Source of the DNA: Promethearchaeota archaeon
GTDB lineage: Archaea > Asgardarchaeota > Thorarchaeia > Thorarchaeales > Thorarchaeaceae
Direction of reading: 5' to 3'
Assembly: GCA_014728035.1 (NCBI GenBank)
Contig: WJMJ01000108.1
Location: 1-64,000, forward strand
Length of the DNA stretch: 64,000 nucleotides
In this document: positions 23,308 through 32,080 of the stretch, piece by piece
Layout: every line of letters begins with the position of its first letter
Numbering within the stretch: the stretch's first letter is position 1
Made by a program: the position numbers and the translations under genes
The notes under the pieces: generated by a model
Database searches by the model: none
Told to the model about the DNA's origin: nothing
Seen by the model: the letters and a program-made list of their open reading frames with translations, nothing else

Positions 23308-25284
23308 TCAAATCAGACCAGTTATCCATTGAACTATTTGTAAAGCTAATACCGCATTGTCTTGTGAGCCATATTGATTCAACATTCCCCAGTTATCAAT
23401 AAAGAAATTGGTACCAGTGACAACCATTCTTCCTCCTGAAACATGTGTGTTACTTACCATCACTGCTCGACTCTGTATAGTCGCAAGTTTTTTGGCTGTT
23501 CCAGTTCCTGATGCAGAAAATGGAGCTCCCGCAAAGTCGAATGAACTCACACCGTCCATGATAGGATCACTGGCGAGATTAGAAACAACTACAGTTCCGT
23601 CCAAACTTGGAACAACATCACTGGCAAGTTCTAATCCTGCCCATGTAAGAAACTCATTCAAGCTAGCGATATCGACACTCTTGTTCGATAATGCCGCGAT
23701 AAATAGGCCTCCACCATTCTCGTAGTAATTTTGGTAAACATCAATTTCTGCTGTTGTGAAATTTTTCGAGAATACAAATCGGTCTGTTGAGAATGAGTCA
23801 TCCACATCCCAAGTACAGGGATCTAACATTATTATCGCATCGTATCTGGCGAAGTTACTCTCTGTTATCTCGCTTCTATTTGATATTTGTTCAACTGAGA
23901 TCGAGTTACTTACAAGTTCCTTGTAGAATTCTCGAAATTGTCCATATTTCGTATCAATGCTCCATGTTGAATGTGTAATGTCAAAAGCAACTCTTGCATT
24001 TGGAGTCACCACTGTGAATTCTATAGATAGAGTTGCATTACCAAGGTCATCTGAGAAGAAAGCAAATTCTGCATCGAAAGAGTTTGAACCTGTAGTAGGC
24101 ACATTAATCTCTAGATCAACAAAGCCAGACTGATTTATGTAGATTGTATCTGGCATGTCGAAGATTTCTGGTGTAGAACTTGCAATATTGACATCGAATA
24201 TTCCTGCCCCACCACAGAACAAGTGAATTTTGAATCGATATCGATCACCATAGAATAACCGCTCATAATCGATAGGCAGATAGCTAGGATGTGCATATGC
24301 TATAGATGGAACTTCTTCCCCGTCTGTATTTTCAGAGATGAGTTCAATCGACCTAGCAATATTCATCCTGCCTGCTCCAACAATATATTCTTCATAATTG
24401 AGAGGCTCAGCTCCTTGAAGCAAAGCTGCAACAATCATTCCTGGTGTGTATGAGATGTTATTATCAAGACAGAAATCAATCATCTCCACAACGCCTCCTG
24501 CAACTCTTGGAGCAGCAAAACTAGTTCCGTAATAGCGATATGACCCTGATTGGATATAGCCGAGTGTTGCTATATCGGGCTTCATATAGAGTTTTGATGT
24601 TGGACCATGACTTGTGAAACTGGTAGGTGTCCCATCTGAATCGAGAGCTGCAACTGATATACATTTTTCAAACACGCTTGGTGAAGATATACTCGTTCCT
24701 GCAAACCCGTCATCTCCTTCATTTCCGCCAGATGCTACTACAACAACTCCACGATCAAAAGCCCATGAAATCACATCTTCCAAACTGTCATTGAATGATG
24801 GAGATGCACCTAGACTGAGGTTAATCACACTGCAGTTTTGTTCAACAGCCCATTCTATCCCAGCTATAACACCTAATGTTGTAGCGGTTCCTTCATTATC
24901 CATGATTTTCCCATTCATAATTTTAGCACCAGCGAACTCTTCGAGAACCGCTTTTGCTACCAATGTCCCGTGGGGATTTCCATCGGGCTTGCTATCTTCT
25001 GTAGTAACATCCGTGTATGAATATCCATTCTCTGGATTGATAAAGCTCTTCTCCACAACTATTGAATTCTGTAGAGTGAAATCAGGGTCAATACCAGTGT
25101 CAAGCACAGCAACTCGAACCTCTGACTCTGCACCAAATTGAAATCCGTCAAAGAGTCCTAGCATTATCACAATCCCCGTCGAGAGGACAAGCATCACTAT
25201 AATCAGGCCAGCTGCTATTTTTTTCCCACTCGATGAAGAGGAATGGACTGCAGGTTGATCATAATCCCAATAATTAAACATCAA
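23308..25284 (-). CDS. Membrane-anchored subtilisin-like (S8) serine protease with a C-terminal domain resembling site-1 protease
   Basis: Catalytic triad VLDTG, HGT, GTSFAAP; oxyanion GN; N-terminal TM; C-terminal alpha/beta domain RVAFDITH...GGGLFI...LNEFL. Confidence 0.88.
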   Translation of the reverse strand: MMFNYWDYDQPAVHSSSSSGKKIAAGLIIVMLVLSTGIVIMLGLFDGFQFGAESEVRVAVLDTGIDPDFTLQNSIVVEKSFINPENGYSYTDVTTEDSKPDGNPHGTLVAKAVLEEFAGAKIMNGKIMDNEGTATTLGVIAGIEWAVEQNCSVINLSLGASPSFNDSLEDVISWAFDRGVVVVASGGNEGDDGFAGTSISSPSVFEKCISVAALDSDGTPTSFTSHGPTSKLYMKPDIATLGYIQSGSYRYYGTSFAAPRVAGGVVEMIDFCLDNNISYTPGMIVAALLQGAEPLNYEEYIVGAGRMNIARSIELISENTDGEEVPSIAYAHPSYLPIDYERLFYGDRYRFKIHLFCGGAGIFDVNIASSTPEIFDMPDTIYINQSGFVDLEINVPTTGSNSFDAEFAFFSDDLGNATLSIEFTVVTPNARVAFDITHSTWSIDTKYGQFREFYKELVSNSISVEQISNRSEITESNFARYDAIIMLDPCTWDVDDSFSTDRFVFSKNFTTAEIDVYQNYYENGGGLFIAALSNKSVDIASLNEFLTWAGLELASDVVPSLDGTVVVSNLASDPIMDGVSSFDFAGAPFSASGTGTAKKLATIQSRAVMVSNTHVSGGRMVVTGTNFFIDNWGMLNQYGSQDNAVLALQIVQWITGLI

Positions 25285-25463: not shown

Positions 25464-28391
25464 ATGATTACCGAGGAAAAACCCACTACAAAAAATGGAG
25501 AAAAATTCCATACACTCACATTGAATGAAACTTTTCAACAACTTGATAGTGATCCCAATACCGGACTCGCTGCCGAACAAGTAAAAGAAAGACAGCAAAA
25601 GTATGGTCCGAATGCGATTCCCAAAGTAAAAGGCTCATTTTGGAAGGTGTATCTCGCTCCGATTCTCAATTGGCTAATTAACATCTATTTGCTTAGCTCT
25701 GTTGCCTTAATCATTCTCGCAGTAACTGCACCACCAAATGAGAGTAACCAACTAGCACAAGCAGCGGTTTGGTTGGCTGTAGTGGGTGTGAATTGTATCG
25801 TCGCAATATTTCAACAAGTTCGGGCTCAAAAGAAACTTGAAGCTTTGGAGAAGCTTTCTGCTGGAGAGTCACGAGTTCTTCGTGATGGGCACCAGATGAA
25901 AGTGGACCCTTATGATATAGTCCCTGGTGATGTGATAATCCTCGAACAGGGTGATAAGATTCCAGCGGATGGAAGACTTATCCAGTGTTCAAATTTCACA
26001 TCTAATGAAGCATCCCTTACAGGTGAGAGTGTTCCCGTCACAAAGAATAGTGATGTTACAGTAGCAGAAGATGCACCTTTAACAGATATGGAAAATATGG
26101 TATTCTTTGGAACTTATGTTGCGACAGGAACTGCAAAAGCCATAGCAACAACCACTGGCGGTAATACTGAAATTGGAAAAATTCAAGGCACCCTTGAATC
26201 ACTAAATACTGGTGATATTCCTCTTAGAAAGAAAGTGAATCTACTCGCTAAATTCCTCGGAATTGCATCTATTGGTCTGATGGTAACATCAGTTTTGTGG
26301 GTTCTGATAATTGCTCCTTTCATTTATCCCTCTCTAGAGGCACCCACTTTCACTGAAGCATTAACTTCTGGAATTACTAAAGCAATGACCATAATGCCAA
26401 TCAATATTCCTCTACTCACAACCATTGTCTTATTGACTGGCGTTCTTGCGATGGCTAAGAAGGGAGTGATTATCCGAGACCTTTCTGCTGTAGAGAGTTT
26501 GGGTCGAGTTAGTGTTATTTGCAGTGATAAGACAGGTACCATGACTCGTAATCAAATGACTGTGACAATAGCTTGGGACACCGAAAATTTCTACACCGTA
26601 AAAGGTGCGGGTTATCAACCTGAAGGCAAAATCTACCGGATGAAAGACGATTCTCTTATGGAAAATATTGAAACAGAAGATGCGGTTCTTGTCAGTGATG
26701 TATTTGCCTGGAAGGGTTTGTACCGAATGATGCTCTGTGCTGGTATCAATAATGACGCAGAGATTGTTCAGAAAGAACTTCCAGGACAAGGTACTATATG
26801 GATGCCACTCGGTGATCCAACTGATGCTGCGCTCTTGACCTTTTTCAGAAAAGGTGGGATTGATGAAGCAGACGTGAAGGAGAAATACAAAATTCTTCGT
26901 GAGTTTCCATTTGAATCGGAACTAAAAAGAATGTCCAAAGTCTGTGAAGTGGATGGGAAGAAAGTTGCTTTTACTAAAGGTGCAACTGAAGTGATTCTAC
27001 CCCGATGCACACACATTGGAGACAATTCCAGTGCTCGAAAATTAACTCAAGAGGACATTAAGCAAATACAAAGCATTACTACCAAGTATGCAGAGAAAGG
27101 ATACCGAGTTATTTCACTTGCTAGAAAGGACATGTCTACAACAAATAGTGACATGGACCGAGATGCTGTTGAATCGAATTTGGTTTATCTCGGATTTACT
27201 TGTATTGTCGACCCTCCACGAGATGGTGTGAGAGATGCAGTAGATGACTGTCATAGTGCTGGCATTAATGTTATCATGATCACTGGAGATGCTGCCGCCA
27301 CTGCAAAGACTATTGCAAGCAATCTCAATATTTTTGGGCCTGATTCAATAGCGGTTGAAGGTAGCGAAATTGAAACACTCTCTAATGAAAATTTCTTGAG
27401 AGTTAATGTGTTTGCACGAGTTAACCCTGAACATAAACAGGTGATAGTCGAACGATATCAAGATGATGGCAAAGTTGTGGCAATGACCGGAGATGGAGTG
27501 AATGATGCTCTTGCTCTGGCTATGAGTGATGCTGGTATTGCAATGGGAATTACTGGCACTGATGTTGCAAAAGAAGCAGCTGATATTGTAATTACTGATG
27601 ATAGTTTTGAATCAATAGTTACGGGTGTTCATCAGGGACGTGGTTTGTTCAATAAGATTAGAATGATGATATACTTCTATATAGCGATCAATCTGTTCGA
27701 GAGTATAATTTTCTTTGGTGCAATGTTCTTTATGCCCGACGTAATCAATTTCCTCTCACAATGGCAGAGTCTGTATCTTGTTGTCACGACACATTCTTTC
27801 CCTGGTCTAGCATTGGTCTTTGATAAGACCTCACCCAAAGCAATGGAGGAAAAGCCTCGAGATAGTCAGGAGATTATAACTAGGCCAATTGCGAAGTTCA
27901 TGGCAATTAATGTGGTTCTTATGGTTATAGGTGCAGCTACATTATTCACACTCACCCTTTGGGAAATAATCCCTATGAACATTGATAATTATGGTGGATT
28001 CTATCTTGATGCAGTTAATCCTGTGACTGATGAATTCTACATGGAAATCGACTCTTTTGCGAAAGCTAGAACCATGTTACTCACCATTATTTTGCTTCTG
28101 GAGAGCTCATTGGTTTTATTAATCCGAAGAATAAACATGCCAGTTTCTAAGGGAATTCGCGAACCTGGAATTATCCGATATGTGATACTCCTCGGACTTA
28201 TCTATTTAGCTCATTTATTGCTCATGTACGTTCCAATCGCACAAGCAATTCTAGCTCCATTGGGATTGAACTTCTTCTTCATTCCTCTGAGCATGTTAGA
28301 TTGGATTATCTGCATCCTGTTTGCAGCACCCACAATTATTGGTCTTGAGATCTATAAACGATATTTGCGTGAAAAGGATGAATCATTATAG
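25464..28391 (+). CDS. P-type ATPase (P2-like scaffold, atypical M4 motif)
   Basis: PADG, TGES, DKTGT, KGA, DPPR, TGD, TGDGVND; about 10 TM helices. Confidence 0.93.
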   Translation: MITEEKPTTKNGEKFHTLTLNETFQQLDSDPNTGLAAEQVKERQQKYGPNAIPKVKGSFWKVYLAPILNWLINIYLLSSVALIILAVTAPPNESNQLAQAAVWLAVVGVNCIVAIFQQVRAQKKLEALEKLSAGESRVLRDGHQMKVDPYDIVPGDVIILEQGDKIPADGRLIQCSNFTSNEASLTGESVPVTKNSDVTVAEDAPLTDMENMVFFGTYVATGTAKAIATTTGGNTEIGKIQGTLESLNTGDIPLRKKVNLLAKFLGIASIGLMVTSVLWVLIIAPFIYPSLEAPTFTEALTSGITKAMTIMPINIPLLTTIVLLTGVLAMAKKGVIIRDLSAVESLGRVSVICSDKTGTMTRNQMTVTIAWDTENFYTVKGAGYQPEGKIYRMKDDSLMENIETEDAVLVSDVFAWKGLYRMMLCAGINNDAEIVQKELPGQGTIWMPLGDPTDAALLTFFRKGGIDEADVKEKYKILREFPFESELKRMSKVCEVDGKKVAFTKGATEVILPRCTHIGDNSSARKLTQEDIKQIQSITTKYAEKGYRVISLARKDMSTTNSDMDRDAVESNLVYLGFTCIVDPPRDGVRDAVDDCHSAGINVIMITGDAAATAKTIASNLNIFGPDSIAVEGSEIETLSNENFLRVNVFARVNPEHKQVIVERYQDDGKVVAMTGDGVNDALALAMSDAGIAMGITGTDVAKEAADIVITDDSFESIVTGVHQGRGLFNKIRMMIYFYIAINLFESIIFFGAMFFMPDVINFLSQWQSLYLVVTTHSFPGLALVFDKTSPKAMEEKPRDSQEIITRPIAKFMAINVVLMVIGAATLFTLTLWEIIPMNIDNYGGFYLDAVNPVTDEFYMEIDSFAKARTMLLTIILLLESSLVLLIRRINMPVSKGIREPGIIRYVILLGLIYLAHLLLMYVPIAQAILAPLGLNFFFIPLSMLDWIICILFAAPTIIGLEIYKRYLREKDESL

Positions 28392-28403
28392 TTGGATTGA
28401 GAA

Positions 28404-30353
28404 ATGTTAGTGCAAGCTCTGGATATAGACACAATCATATCCTTTGCACTAGCTTCTATTCTTTTTCTGGTTCTAGTAGGTAGCGTGTATATGCGGATAC
28501 AACAAATCAGAAGACGACGCATTAGAAAATTAGAGAAACTCCTAGTAAACAACATGACACTTTCAGTTTCAGAACTTGCTTCTCAATTAGATACCAAACC
28601 CATTCCAATTCAATCAGTTCTTTATGCAGCTCAAAATGCTGAAAATGCAATATTGAGTTTTAGCAAAACTTCAGTTGTATCTTCAACCTTGCTGATTCGA
28701 CGACTCAAAAACCTCCTAATAGACAACTCCGTTATTCATGTGGTTAAAGAATCTACAATGTGGGATGTCCCAGAGAGAGTCATTGAAGATTATGTTGAGA
28801 TGATAAGCGAAAAAGAAGGTCTAGATGTTGTACAGACTGAGGATGGCGATTTCATTCTGGTACCAGAATTCAAAGAGCGCATGAGAGAAGTACTTGGATT
28901 GCAAGGTCGAATAAACATCACTTCTGAAGCACAACGTCTTAGAGTTAAGAGATTCGACCTTGTCAAGCTCGTTGAACGTTGGGGTTGGAACCTTATAGAA
29001 ATGGGGGATGGGTTTCTAGTTTCTTCTGATTGGCTAAAGAAAACACTAGAAAGATCTATGGAACGAACGGGGTATCTTGAACCTAGCAAAGAAGCTAGCA
29101 GGCTATCAGTTTCCGAAAGAGATATCCTTGAAGCCATGAGGCGATTTGGATGGTCTACTATCACTACAACCGATAATAGATTGCTTCCAGTCCATGCAAT
29201 TGCTGACCGCTTAGAATCCCTACTTGAATTAGAAGGATATCTTAATCCTGTAGAAGAGGCAAAGAAGCTACACATTGACCAGGATGAATTGATGAAGATT
29301 GTTCGAAGAACAGGAATGAAATTCTTTGTTGATGATGACGGAATCATCGTGACATTTGAATATCTGAAGAATCGGGTCTTAGATGATTTAGCACTTTCTG
29401 GAAAAATTGAAGTAAATGAGGAAGCAGATACACTGGGAGTCAAAGTCAGTGTAATCACAACCATTCTACGAAATGCGGAAAAAGTTCGAAAAATTGGAAG
29501 AGGAAAATATATTTCAACCACAAGATTGCGTCAATGGATATTGGACTCTTTTTCTGAAGATGGAATTCTGAATGTGGATTCCGTTGAAATGGAATGGGGT
29601 ATTACTAATCCATCTTTAAATCTCATTCTCAAAGAATTTGGGATAAGAACTGTTGCAACACGTGATGGTAATCATTTATCTCTGTCATGGATTAGAACGA
29701 AGATAATGGGGTCATTGGAGGACGGCAAATCTGTAGATCCTTTAGACTTGGTTGACGAACTGAATATCTCGTTTGGAATCGCACAGGCACTACTAGCTCA
29801 AATTGATGCAGAAGCAATTATGAATACTATGGGCGCTTTGGTTCCAGTATCAAAGTTGCAACGTGAATTCAGTAAGATTTACAATTCAAAAGGCGTCCTT
29901 GACCCTAGTAAAGAAGCCAGAGAACGGATGTTGGACCCATCAGATGTCATTCAAATCATTAAGGGAATGGATCTTGATGCATTGATTGGAAAGAATGATA
30001 CCTTCATCTCAGTGGGAACAATCTTTCGGTTGGTGCGTTGGGCTCTAAAGAATAATGGTATATATGATTTAAGAGTCGCTGCAAACCGGTTGAACGTAAA
30101 CTATTCAGAATTAACAGAAAGAATAAGTCCTCTCCTTAGAGAGTCTGATTTTCTTATCAAGAAGGCAGGCGTAATTGTGACTGATGATTGGGTTAGCAAA
30201 TTACGAAAAAAGGCTAAGAGTTTAGGAAGGATAAATGTTACTACTTTTTCCAAAGAACAGAGTATCAGAAGAGGTGCAATGATAGAGTTACTGAGAAAGT
30301 TCTTGCAAGGTGCTTATATTCCTCGTTCTGACGTTTACATGGTCCGAAGTTAG
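28404..30353 (+). CDS. N-terminally anchored tandem winged-helix repeat protein (UFL1/DDRGK1-like)
   Basis: TM helix followed by an RRRR stop-transfer, then about 11 repeats of ~48 aa with the pattern G.(I/L)....A..L.(V/I). Confidence 0.7.
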   Translation: MLVQALDIDTIISFALASILFLVLVGSVYMRIQQIRRRRIRKLEKLLVNNMTLSVSELASQLDTKPIPIQSVLYAAQNAENAILSFSKTSVVSSTLLIRRLKNLLIDNSVIHVVKESTMWDVPERVIEDYVEMISEKEGLDVVQTEDGDFILVPEFKERMREVLGLQGRINITSEAQRLRVKRFDLVKLVERWGWNLIEMGDGFLVSSDWLKKTLERSMERTGYLEPSKEASRLSVSERDILEAMRRFGWSTITTTDNRLLPVHAIADRLESLLELEGYLNPVEEAKKLHIDQDELMKIVRRTGMKFFVDDDGIIVTFEYLKNRVLDDLALSGKIEVNEEADTLGVKVSVITTILRNAEKVRKIGRGKYISTTRLRQWILDSFSEDGILNVDSVEMEWGITNPSLNLILKEFGIRTVATRDGNHLSLSWIRTKIMGSLEDGKSVDPLDLVDELNISFGIAQALLAQIDAEAIMNTMGALVPVSKLQREFSKIYNSKGVLDPSKEARERMLDPSDVIQIIKGMDLDALIGKNDTFISVGTIFRLVRWALKNNGIYDLRVAANRLNVNYSELTERISPLLRESDFLIKKAGVIVTDDWVSKLRKKAKSLGRINVTTFSKEQSIRRGAMIELLRKFLQGAYIPRSDVYMVRS

Positions 30354-30447
30354 AATATACATAATAATCGAATATTGTGTATTTACCATTGAAATTCTAT
30401 ATATAGTACTCCATCCTTCTCAATTATGGAGAATTACGTTGGCTAGA

Positions 30448-31296
30448 ATGACCACATATCGTATTCGTCAGATGAAGAAAAAGGGGAAGAAGATTGTTAT
30501 GCTGACTGCCTATGATGCACCCTCAGCATCAATACTGAGTGATGCAGGTGTTGATATCATCCTTGTGGGTGATTCAGTGGGTAACTCTTTGTTGGGGTAT
30601 GAAAGCACTATTCCAGTTCGTCTTGAAGATGTTATCCATCATTGTGCCGCAGTTGCACGTGCAAAACCAAACTCCTTCATTGTTGGTGATATGCCTTTTA
30701 TGACCTACAAAGTGAGTGTCGAACAAGCACTCAAGAATTGTAGTCGCATGCTGCAAGAGGGATCTGCAGAAGCTGTCAAGATAGAAGGTGGGAGCCCCTG
30801 TATTGTAAAAACAGTAAAAGCTGTGGTCGATGCGGGTATTCCTGTTATGGGTCATATTGGGTTAACCCCTCAAAGTGTGTATGAGTTTGGTGGATACCGA
30901 GTTCAAGGTCGAACAGCTGATGCTACTGAAGAATTAATCGAACAAGCACAAGAGCTGGAAAAAGCTGGTGTATTCTCACTTGTTATTGAACTAGTTCCCT
31001 CCGAATCTGCAAAACTAATTACCGAGTCTGTAGACATTCCTACAATTGGTATTGGAGCGGGTCCATTTTGTGATGGACAGGTCTTAGTCTTATGGGATAT
31101 GCTAGGTCTCTTTGAAGATTTCAAACCAAAATTCTTGAAAAAATATGCTGATATTAGAAAAATAATCCGTGATGCTGTTTCCAATTACGCCTCTGATGTT
31201 AGAGAGGGAACATTTCCCTCTTTCGAACATAGTTTTGAGATGTCTGAAGAAGAATCAGGACGTCTCTATGGGCGAAGTCAACCTTCCAAAAGGTAA
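30448..31296 (+). CDS. panB: 3-methyl-2-oxobutanoate hydroxymethyltransferase
   Basis: MLTAYD, LVGDS, DMPF, VKIEGG, GHIGLTPQ, GIGAG, DGQVLV. True start is about 30439-30448. Confidence 0.95.
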   Translation: MTTYRIRQMKKKGKKIVMLTAYDAPSASILSDAGVDIILVGDSVGNSLLGYESTIPVRLEDVIHHCAAVARAKPNSFIVGDMPFMTYKVSVEQALKNCSRMLQEGSAEAVKIEGGSPCIVKTVKAVVDAGIPVMGHIGLTPQSVYEFGGYRVQGRTADATEELIEQAQELEKAGVFSLVIELVPSESAKLITESVDIPTIGIGAGPFCDGQVLVLWDMLGLFEDFKPKFLKKYADIRKIIRDAVSNYASDVREGTFPSFEHSFEMSEEESGRLYGRSQPSKR

Positions 31297-31316: not shown

Positions 31317-31529
31317 CTATTCTTCTTTCTTCTCCAGAGTATTATTTAGAGCATCTACCAGCTTATCCGCTTCTATCCCATGTGCAACAGCGCCTTGTTC
31401 AATACTCTCAAATTGTGCAACTGCACATCCATAACAATGGAGACCCCATTCCATAAATGTGCCAGCTGTTTCTGGCCATTTTCTTACAACTTCTGCTATT
31501 TTCATGTCTTTCGTGATTGTTTCTGCCAT
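31317..31529 (-). CDS. DUF1858 domain protein (hybrid-cluster-associated redox disulfide domain)
   Basis: ITKDMKIAEVVRKWPE...GLHCYGC...ESIEQGA..HGI. Confidence 0.85.
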   Translation of the reverse strand: MAETITKDMKIAEVVRKWPETAGTFMEWGLHCYGCAVAQFESIEQGAVAHGIEADKLVDALNNTLEKKEE

Positions 31530-31657
31530 TACTCTCACCAATTAACAATAGTGAATCATGTCTAATTCTTGCGCGAGCCCTAATAAGCATTAGCTTAGGA
31601 ACTTAGCTCGAACTATCTATTTCTATCCGATTAACAGTGAAGGCAATTTGAATATAG

Positions 31658-32080
31658 CTATAATACCATATGTTCGAGACCCTTATCTCTAAGAACCTCT
31701 GGAAATACTTTGAATAGAGGTTTAATTTTTGATAGCAACCCTAGTGCTTTTGGGATGGAACCATCCATTTTTACTTGTCTACGAGCCATAGCAATGGTCG
31801 TGTTCAATTTTCCTTGCCAGAATTTGTTAGTAGTTTCTGATGTACTCCAAACAGTTATTTCTGGTTCAACATCTGAGTCGAAACTAAGACTACCAAGTTC
31901 ACCATTCGGTCCTGGGTTTGAAAAATCTATTGTGACATGGACTTCAGGTTGTTCGATATCAAAACGAACTACGATACCTGATTTAGCCAGTTTTTCCATA
32001 ACTTCTTCTTCCTTCTGAACACGAATCCAGAATTCACGAAACACAGCTTTCAATTGATCAGAACTTTCGAAATATGGCAT
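31658..32080 (-). CDS. SCP2 sterol/lipid-binding domain protein
   Basis: FWQGKLNTTIAMARRQVKMDG is the SCP2 C-terminal signature. Confidence 0.85.
   Translation of the reverse strand: MPYFESSDQLKAVFREFWIRVQKEEEVMEKLAKSGIVVRFDIEQPEVHVTIDFSNPGPNGELGSLSFDSDVEPEITVWSTSETTNKFWQGKLNTTIAMARRQVKMDGSIPKALGLLSKIKPLFKVFPEVLRDKGLEHMVL

Follow-up and report, generated by a model that had tools for sequence, protein, structure and literature searches.

A membrane-anchored Thorarchaeota protein with eleven UFL1-like winged helices and an unsplit DDRGK1-UFL1 junction

The window analyzed here is a 64,000-nucleotide stretch of DNA from a Promethearchaeota archaeon of the family Thorarchaeaceae (assembly GCA_014728035.1, contig WJMJ01000108.1, positions 1 to 64,000), and the gene in question encodes a 649-amino acid protein in which an N-terminal membrane anchor is followed by a chain of winged helices (WHs). 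Its open reading frame (ORF) starts at the first ATG past an in-frame TGA. The gene and its parts are listed below with the source of each assignment in brackets.

28404..30353, + strand: gene for the membrane-anchored winged-helix protein, 649 amino acids, stop codon included (ORF list)
28428..28493, + strand: N-terminal transmembrane anchor, residues ~9-30, with the basic stop-transfer RIQQIRRRRIRK next to it (hydropathy scan)
28506..28682, + strand: WH1, residues 35-93, membrane-proximal and net basic (structural model, charge table, hhalign matrix)
28683..28859, + strand: WH2, residues 94-152, a complete winged helix (model, HMMER, hhalign)
28773..28961, + strand: best stretch for Pfam PF09743 (E3_UFM1_ligase), residues 124-186, holding the most conserved motif (Pfam scan)
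28860..30011, + strand: WH3-WH9, mutually homologous and mostly acidic or neutral (model, hhalign matrix, charge table)
30012..30350, + strand: WH10 (residues 537-593) and the basic C-terminal WH11 (residues 594-649) (model, charge table)

A hydropathy scan revealed one hydrophobic segment in the protein, with a Kyte-Doolittle 19-residue mean of up to 2.47, and so confirmed the signal anchor that had been claimed in the original prediction, a note made on this DNA from its sequence alone. The segment is preceded by an acidic tip of eight residues and followed by the basic RIQQIRRRRIRK (RRRR), so that the positive-inside rule places most of the protein in the cytoplasm. The product is a type-II-like single-pass membrane protein, with approximately eight residues outside and the winged-helix chain in the cytoplasm. 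A hydrophobic segment was present in 14 of 17 full-length representatives, and the anchor sequence was weakly conserved across orthologues, with a mean column identity of 0.43. In an AlphaFold2 model of the protein, built on 13 orthologues, residues 10-49 form one long helix that covers both the anchor and the linker. WH1 follows the basic stretch after about 5 residues, and the link from anchor to WH1 amounts to only ~20 residues within this continuous helix.

The AlphaFold2 model has a mean predicted local distance difference test score (pLDDT) of 89.8 and a predicted template modelling score (pTM) of 0.52, the latter meaning that the overall shape of the chain is unreliable. Following the long helix, the model contains eleven successive helix-strand-helix-helix-strand-strand units, which are winged helices, and every residue falls either in the anchor or in a WH. 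WH3 to WH9 span residues 153-207, 208-262, 263-317, 318-371, 372-426, 427-481, and 482-536, respectively, while the chain ends with WH11 at residue 649, with no domain beyond it in the model and no further Pfam domain in the protein. The eleven repeats counted in the original prediction were thus recovered by the model, and the peptides that it quoted were all found, at residues 141-172, 167-181, 222-236, 277-291, 332-346, and 607-621. Its repeat period of ~48 amino acids was wrong; the units are 54-59 amino acids long, with G-x-(I/L)-(N/E/D) motifs recurring every 54-56 residues and a period of ~55. Comparison of the repeats by hhalign across the 13 orthologues revealed that repeats 2-10 are mutually related, with probabilities of up to 98% and pairwise E-values down to 4e-12, while in this matrix repeats 1 and 11 stand apart and qualify as winged helices by fold alone, WH1 having no sequence similarity to the other repeats. 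A BLAST self-comparison of the protein detected no internal repeats, and the repeats are therefore old and divergent. Judged from the sequence, this repetition of winged helices is not due to chance. Across orthologues the array has a pI of 5.1-7.7 and a net charge of -25 to +1. Only WH1 and WH11 are net basic, with a mean net charge of +4.3 for WH11, and the inner repeats are acidic to neutral. Conservation is highest in WH2-WH3, which also contain the most conserved motif of the family, EGLDVV.T.DGDYILVPE.K.R.R..L.LQGR.D..SEAQRL.

In eukaryotes, UFMylation of ribosomes bound to the endoplasmic reticulum needs a scaffold of DDRGK1 and UFL1, which have one composite domain in common. The E3_UFM1_ligase family PF09743 was the sole Pfam family above its cut-off for the archaeal protein, scoring 24.0 bits versus a cut-off of 23.2, and it was matched by all 13 of the orthologues at E <= 0.1, with a best E-value of 3.2e-13. 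When ten orthologues were scanned singly, nine exceeded the PF09743 cut-off (range 20.8-46.2 bits), and in eight the match was colinear, running from profile positions ~16-150 to residues ~120-260. A family profile searched against all PDB sequences retrieved only 8b9x, a DDRGK1-UFL1 chimera (E 7e-8, and 1.5e-8 with an N-terminal profile), and the UFL1 chains of 8c0d, 8qfc, and 8ohd. Alignment by hhalign to two eukaryotic UFL1 sequences yielded a probability of 96.2% and an E-value of 2.6e-9 over 236 columns, and was again colinear, with archaeal residues 115-404 matched to UFL1 residues 22-283. In a family-profile search of 1.84 billion representative proteins, bona fide UFL1 proteins, whose own PF09743 E-values are 1e-77 and 4.5e-105, were retrieved at E 1.8e-5 and 1.8e-4.

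Structural comparison gave the same answer. The top Foldseek matches of the full model were 60S-bound UFL1 chains (8qfc_B, 3.3e-13; 8ohd_A, 9.7e-12; 9gy4_E, 2.4e-11), followed by the DDRGK1-UFL1 chimera at 3.1e-9, and the next class, SelB (1lva), was reached at 4.1e-5. For the fragment of residues 31-265, the chimera 8b9x scored 2.2e-9 versus 4.0e-5 for SelB, placing SelB 4 to 8 orders of magnitude behind UFL1 and the chimera. The original prediction had named SelB and other winged helix-turn-helix families as competitors for the repeats, and it is UFL1 that fits better. Taken together, PF09743, hhalign, the PDB profile matches, and Foldseek all agree that the winged-helix chain shares ancestry with the WH array at the N-terminus of eukaryotic UFL1, of which it is a true distant relative, as had been proposed.

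Other candidate relatives were rejected. Matches to PCI domains, the proteasome lid and COP9 signalosome, ESCRT-II/Vps25, and RPC82/RPC34 of RNA polymerase III comprised single or double WHs only, and those to Z-alpha, MarR, and FeoC, again single or double winged helices, reflected the generic fold only. These generic winged-helix matches lay at background, with Z of about 6-8.5, Foldseek E-values of at least 2.5e-5, and low probability. Pfam matches to MU2_FHA, TubZ_C, DUF948, ANT, and HTH families were below their cut-offs and inconsistent between orthologues. An NCBIfam scan of the winged-helix protein returned no match, and a word-indexed homologue search returned the protein itself only.

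The human platform consists of seven WHs, namely WH1' from membrane-anchored UFBP1/DDRGK1, one composite WH, and five from UFL1, and the composite WH is assembled from the DDRGK1 C-terminus (pWH') and the UFL1 N-terminus (pWH; PMC10937380). The HMMER alignment of the archaeal family to 8b9x passes through the DDRGK1/UFL1 fusion point of the chimera (NSLIAW-G-LSERNCIEIV), in which NSLIAW belongs to DDRGK1 and LSERN to UFL1 from residue 27 onward. The archaeal counterpart of this stretch is KE(A/S)xxW-D(L/V)-xE..I..LVE, and its W120, nearly invariant in the family, is aligned with the DDRGK1 tryptophan. Within the model of WH2, helix 113-120 replaces the DDRGK1 half of the composite domain, and helix 124-138 plus two wing strands replace the UFL1 half. 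The domain that eukaryotes build from the DDRGK1 C-terminus and the UFL1 N-terminus is therefore one uninterrupted WH in this protein, and the DDRGK1-then-UFL1 order is held in one polypeptide as anchor, WH1, intact WH2, and UFL1-type WHs, with WH1 sitting where DDRGK1 WH1' sits. A separate model of residues 31-265, with a pLDDT of 91.7, superposed end to end on the four WHs of 8b9x_A (VIA Z 10.8, 228 of 256 residues; model 1-235 on chain 0-255). This end-to-end fit and the junction-spanning HMMER alignment bear out the single-chain DDRGK1-UFL1-like layout that the original prediction had put forward.

In the eukaryotic ligase, Arg265 of the DDRGK motif, in the wing of DDRGK1 WH1', contacts and activates UFC1, and the PTC loop of the UFL1 C-terminal bundle occupies the tRNA sites of the 60S subunit. 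In the archaeal protein the DDRGK motif is missing, the wing of WH1 reading LSFSKTSVVS (family consensus LSF.G..VVS.P), and the model and Pfam scan contain no UFL1 C-terminal coiled-coil, helical bundle, or PTC loop, with the chain stopping at WH11. The UFIM and the long ribosome-docking helix of DDRGK1 are likewise without counterpart in the model between the anchor and WH1. The N-terminal alpha1 helix of UFL1, which binds the E2 enzyme UFC1 (Makhlouf 2024, PMC10937380), has no counterpart in the hhalign and HMMER alignments, where homology starts at UFL1 residue 22-26; upstream of the UFL1-homologous region lie the first half of WH2, WH1, and the anchor.

The search for the remainder of the UFM1 pathway covered this genome, whose assembly is 97.9% complete with 8.5% contamination, and its relatives. 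UFC1, which the original prediction had named among the genes to search for, was found neither in this genome nor in any of 77 family genomes, with a model that also matched no control genome. Neither a UQ_con E2, ubiquitin, CDK5RAP3, nor Peptidase_C78 (UFSP) was found in this nearly complete genome, which does contain one ThiF-type E1-like protein in a 257-amino acid frame, a size common for MoeB/ThiF. The Ufm1 model PF03671, which is blind to Asgard homologues, matched nothing in this genome, the 77 family genomes, or 301 Asgard genomes. Ufm1 homologues detected by structure have been reported in nine Asgard clades (Koestlbacher et al. 2026, PMC12962969), and as PF03671 matches no Asgard genome despite that report, a Pfam negative in Asgard archaea is no proof of absence.

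Two genes flank the winged-helix gene on the same strand.

25464..28391, + strand: P2-type cation ATPase, upstream (Pfam domains; PDB and NCBIfam relatives)
30448..31296, + strand: panB, ketopantoate hydroxymethyltransferase, downstream (Pfam PF02548, E 3.5e-115)

The spacer of 12 nt between the ATPase stop codon and the start of the winged-helix gene (28392-28403), which agrees with the placement given in the original prediction, is too short for a promoter. Ahead of panB, a spacer of 94 nt contains a TATA-like TTCTATATATAG at 30396-30407, ~40 nt upstream of the panB ATG (30448), suggesting that panB probably has its own promoter. From the two spacers we infer that the winged-helix gene probably shares a transcript with the ATPase but not with panB. 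The longest reading frame called for panB starts with GTG at 30310, within the final part of the winged-helix gene, and is probably overlong. The closest PDB relatives of the ATPase are Listeria LMCA1 (E 2e-124), SPCA1, and SERCA, and it lies far under every NCBIfam equivalog cut-off. Described beforehand as atypical, the ATPase has an ordinary P2-type fold with all domains. Its unusual M4 'MPINIP' and M6 'TTHSFPG' motifs, which had been pointed out from the sequence, are invariant in seven orthologues from six genera.

Full-length orthologues of the winged-helix protein are 29-68% identical to it, 644-678 amino acids long, and present in 9 of 16 sampled genera of one GTDB family; the 68%-identical orthologue is from 'Candidatus Thorarchaeota archaeon isolate BC' (contig SHMX01000003.1). 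The profile search of 1.84 billion proteins gave 69 matches, approximately 17 of which are full-length orthologues. Each orthologous locus has the gene flanked by a P-type ATPase, 60-85% identical, and by panB, 74-90% identical, and no more than roughly 35 nt separate it from the ATPase. The adjacency to the ATPase that the original prediction had pointed to is therefore kept throughout, yet ATPase orthologues without the gene exist: in five genera, panB comes straight after an ATPase orthologue of 62-67% identity, with the surrounding synteny unchanged. Within this conserved block, the winged-helix gene is thus either present or cleanly missing. A maximum-likelihood tree of the C-terminal half of the ATPase, from 13 loci with the gene and five without, was star-like, with 9 of 15 forks open, and the number of gene gains or losses therefore cannot be told.

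The block is flanked by an S8 peptidase (23308-25284, - strand) on one side and by a 74-amino acid protein (31317-31541, - strand) and a 140-amino acid protein (31658-32080, - strand) on the other, and from the S8 peptidase to the small genes its order and orientation are kept in many genera of the family, with or without the winged-helix gene. Paralogous WH-array proteins of 620-770 amino acids occur outside the ATPase-panB locus in other Thorarchaeota genomes (G001:C6:93308-93961, G010:C65:10371-11180, and G014:C20:34606-35328). No such paralogue was found at E <= 1e-5 in the present genome.

We consider it reasonably probable that the protein is a non-ligase, UFM1-independent membrane scaffold for one or more cytoplasmic protein partners, probably co-expressed with the P2-type ATPase. 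The anchor would hold the chain of eleven WHs, and thereby its partner or partners, at the membrane. The likeliest contact surface would be the strongly conserved face of WH2-WH3, with basic WH11 possibly contributing, and with the ligase-specific parts missing the protein would not act as an E3 ligase. By analogy with the WHs of UFL1, the partner may, speculatively, be the large ribosomal subunit. The acidic-to-neutral array, in which just the first and last WHs are basic, argues against a general DNA- or RNA-binding rod and fits the human case of WHs contacting ribosomal proteins, where the UFL1 WH domains touch ribosomal proteins almost exclusively (Makhlouf et al. 2024, PMC10937380). A complex prediction between ATPase residues 20-975 and anchor residues 1-44 scored 0.00 in two runs without controls, and is uninformative either way.

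A number of observations weigh against this picture of a UFL1-like scaffold in DDRGK1-UFL1 order. The PF09743 match of the single protein is marginal, its best single stretch reaching 14.7 bits in the genome scan, and the case for UFL1 therefore rests on family-level profiles; for 2 of 10 orthologues it is the C-terminal repeats that contain the best PF09743 match. The full model fits 8b9x one repeat further on (residues 79-320, Z 12.2), and since repeated units align in either register, the register rests on sequence rather than structure. WH1 does not detectably resemble DDRGK1 in sequence, and PF09756, the DDRGK family, was unmatched in all 13 orthologues (E <= 0.05-0.1), so that the DDRGK check proposed in the original prediction came out negative. 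Genome-wide, PF09756 matches (E of at least 6e-4, under the cut-off) fell in other small WH proteins, and nine control genomes also matched. The correspondence of the anchor, WH1, and the half-domain with DDRGK1 is architectural and does not show sequence homology for WH1. Absence of Ufm1 is not established either, given the insensitivity of PF03671 to Asgard proteins. The family is also narrow, found in 23 of the 76 genomes sampled from a single Thorarchaeota family, with no full-length form in the other 29 families among the 301 Asgard genomes, where the matches are partial only and to other WH-array proteins; it is thus a variant of one lineage and not a conserved core factor.

A specific case of the scaffold reading, and the functional proposal of the original prediction, is that the WH array binds the archaeal large ribosomal subunit near the translocon without UFM1 tagging, which we regard as doubtful. 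The nearest solved relatives of the model are 60S-bound UFL1 chains, and the anchor gives the array a DDRGK1-like topology. In the human complex all WHs but WH1' touch the ribosome, via eL13, eL36, and eL42, with eL13 contacted by WH1 and WH2 of UFL1 (PMC10937380). By HMMER, Asn78 and Gln83 of UFL1, both eL13 contacts, align with archaeal positions 171 and 176, within the invariant G168-R169...E175 motif of the family, and the genome encodes an eL13 homologue (PF01294, 36.7 bits, G000:C44:58999-59160). However, most orthologues have Asp at position 171, where this protein has Asn, and position 176 is occupied by Ala; these correspondences would serve as leads, not as evidence for ribosome binding. 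Both ends of the eukaryotic clamp, the UFL1 C-terminal bundle with its PTC loop and the DDRGK1 ribosome-docking helix, are missing, CDK5RAP3 was not found in the genome, and the gene is lacking from most Thorarchaeota genera and from the other sampled Asgard genomes, which would be odd for a general ribosome factor. It is improbable, too, that the protein is an unsplit, pre-UFM1 platform that docks large ribosomal subunits at the membrane through eL13-type contacts; if true, this would imply a device for tethering ribosomes to membranes and releasing them that is older than UFM1 and was later split and equipped with a tag by eukaryotes.

Single-pass regulators of eukaryotic P2 pumps include phospholamban, FXYD proteins, and beta subunits, and the winged-helix protein could by the same token be an accessory or regulatory subunit of the adjacent ATPase with the WH rod as a cytoplasmic adaptor. 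The ATPase is directly upstream at every orthologous locus across nine genera, with spacers of 12 to about 35 nt, both products are membrane proteins, and the M4/M6 signature of the pump is unusual and conserved. Against this, the five genera with an ATPase and no winged-helix gene indicate that the pump does not need it, the low conservation of the anchor is unlike a specific helix-helix interface, and with the whole block syntenic the adjacency may reflect inheritance only, such that we judge this role unlikely. A nucleic-acid-binding array functionally unrelated to UFL1, whether it bound mRNA as SelB does or tethered DNA to the membrane, is quite improbable: single repeats do superpose on many DNA- or RNA-binding winged helices of Z-alpha, MarR, IclR, and FeoC type (Z 7-8.4, ~55 residues) and on WH2-WH4 of SelB (Z 8.1), and both terminal WHs are basic, but single-WH matches at Z 7-8 are the stated background of the tool, SelB trails UFL1 by the orders of magnitude given above, no SelB or DNA-binding family was recovered by sequence profile, and over its full length the array is acidic to neutral. 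Least probable of all is that the protein functions as an E3-like ligase scaffold for some divergent Ufm1-like tag of Asgard archaea, which we think very unlikely indeed. The Ufm1 homologues reported in nine Asgard clades, the uninformative PF03671 negative, and the one ThiF-type E1-like gene would be compatible with it, but that sole ThiF protein has the common MoeB/ThiF size, the genome yielded no UFC1, UQ_con E2, UFSP protease, or CDK5RAP3, and neither the UFC1-binding alpha1 helix of UFL1 nor the UFC1-activating Arg of DDRGK1 has a counterpart.

With the UFM1-independent membrane scaffold as the preferred reading, the protein can be set beside known systems. The C-terminal WH1-WH4 of SelB (1lva, 2uwm, 2pjp) likewise consist of at least four tandem head-to-tail winged helices and form the second-best structural class (Foldseek 4e-5, VIA Z 7.2-8.1). 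SelB binds mRNA; in contrast to it, the archaeal protein has no EF-Tu-like GTPase part, an acidic array, and no sequence-profile signal linking it to SelB. Human UFL1 with DDRGK1/UFBP1 (8qfc, 8ohd, 9gy4, 8c0d, 8b9x) is closer, both systems being tandem WH arrays with detectable sequence homology, arranged alike as an N-terminal anchor, then a WH, then a run of UFL1-type WHs, and facing the cytoplasm. UFL1 and the archaeal array also have in common a wing motif, DG-x-[FY]-I-x-x-P-E, followed by a G-R-(V/I)-(N/D) strand. They differ in that the archaeal protein is one chain with an intact composite WH, whereas the human platform is two chains joined as pWH'/pWH, in the number of WHs (eleven versus seven), and in the lack from the archaeal protein of UFL1 alpha1, coiled-coil, C-terminal bundle, and PTC loop and of the DDRGK motif, UFIM, and long helix of DDRGK1.

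That UFL1 and DDRGK1 originated in Asgard archaea has been published before, and the kinship is known at the catalogue level: the E3 UFM1-ligase-1 domain is listed among Asgard multidomain fusions (Liu et al., bioRxiv 10.1101/2020.10.19.343400), and the pre-UFM1 role and origin of the DDRGK1/UFL1 scaffold have been touched on only in passing (PMC10183829). Like the Thorarchaeota protein, the Asgard proteins of Liu et al. and Picchianti et al. have a UFL1-type WH array without a detected UFM1 pathway, and a UFM1-independent role has been inferred alike for both. The published examples are fusions to Vps28/Vps23 or adaptin/COPI appendage domains, or unspecified homologues in trees, whereas the Thorarchaeota array is bare. 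We found no description in the literature of an array like this one, bare, with eleven WHs behind an N-terminal anchor and an unbroken composite WH, limited to part of the Thorarchaeota and with a fixed place between a P2-ATPase and panB. With the origin published, many related Asgard arrays, and a family confined to part of one uncultured family, the value of this example is limited; it does provide a compact, natural, single-chain instance of the whole DDRGK1-UFL1 layout without the ligase parts, which supports a fission origin of the DDRGK1/UFL1 pair, and, with a pLDDT of ~90, a confidently modelled construct for experiments on what arrays of this kind bind.

Related arrays near membranes are found in other proteins retrieved by the representative search. 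The receptor-like P0019, P0022, P0028, P0047, P0049, and P0059 each have a transmembrane helix with a homologous WH array within ~50-200 residues of it, and match the family profile at E 8.5e-48 to 2.9e-5, while in P0035 and P0044 the WH array is fused to TPR repeats. The receptor-like proteins combine a signal or anchor with large PKD, Big, or NosD beta-helix ectodomains, in contrast to the Thorarchaeota family, which has almost nothing outside. A membrane-proximal UFL1-like array is thus a recurrent Asgard building block, of which the protein described here is a form with a bare cytoplasmic chain of eleven winged helices.

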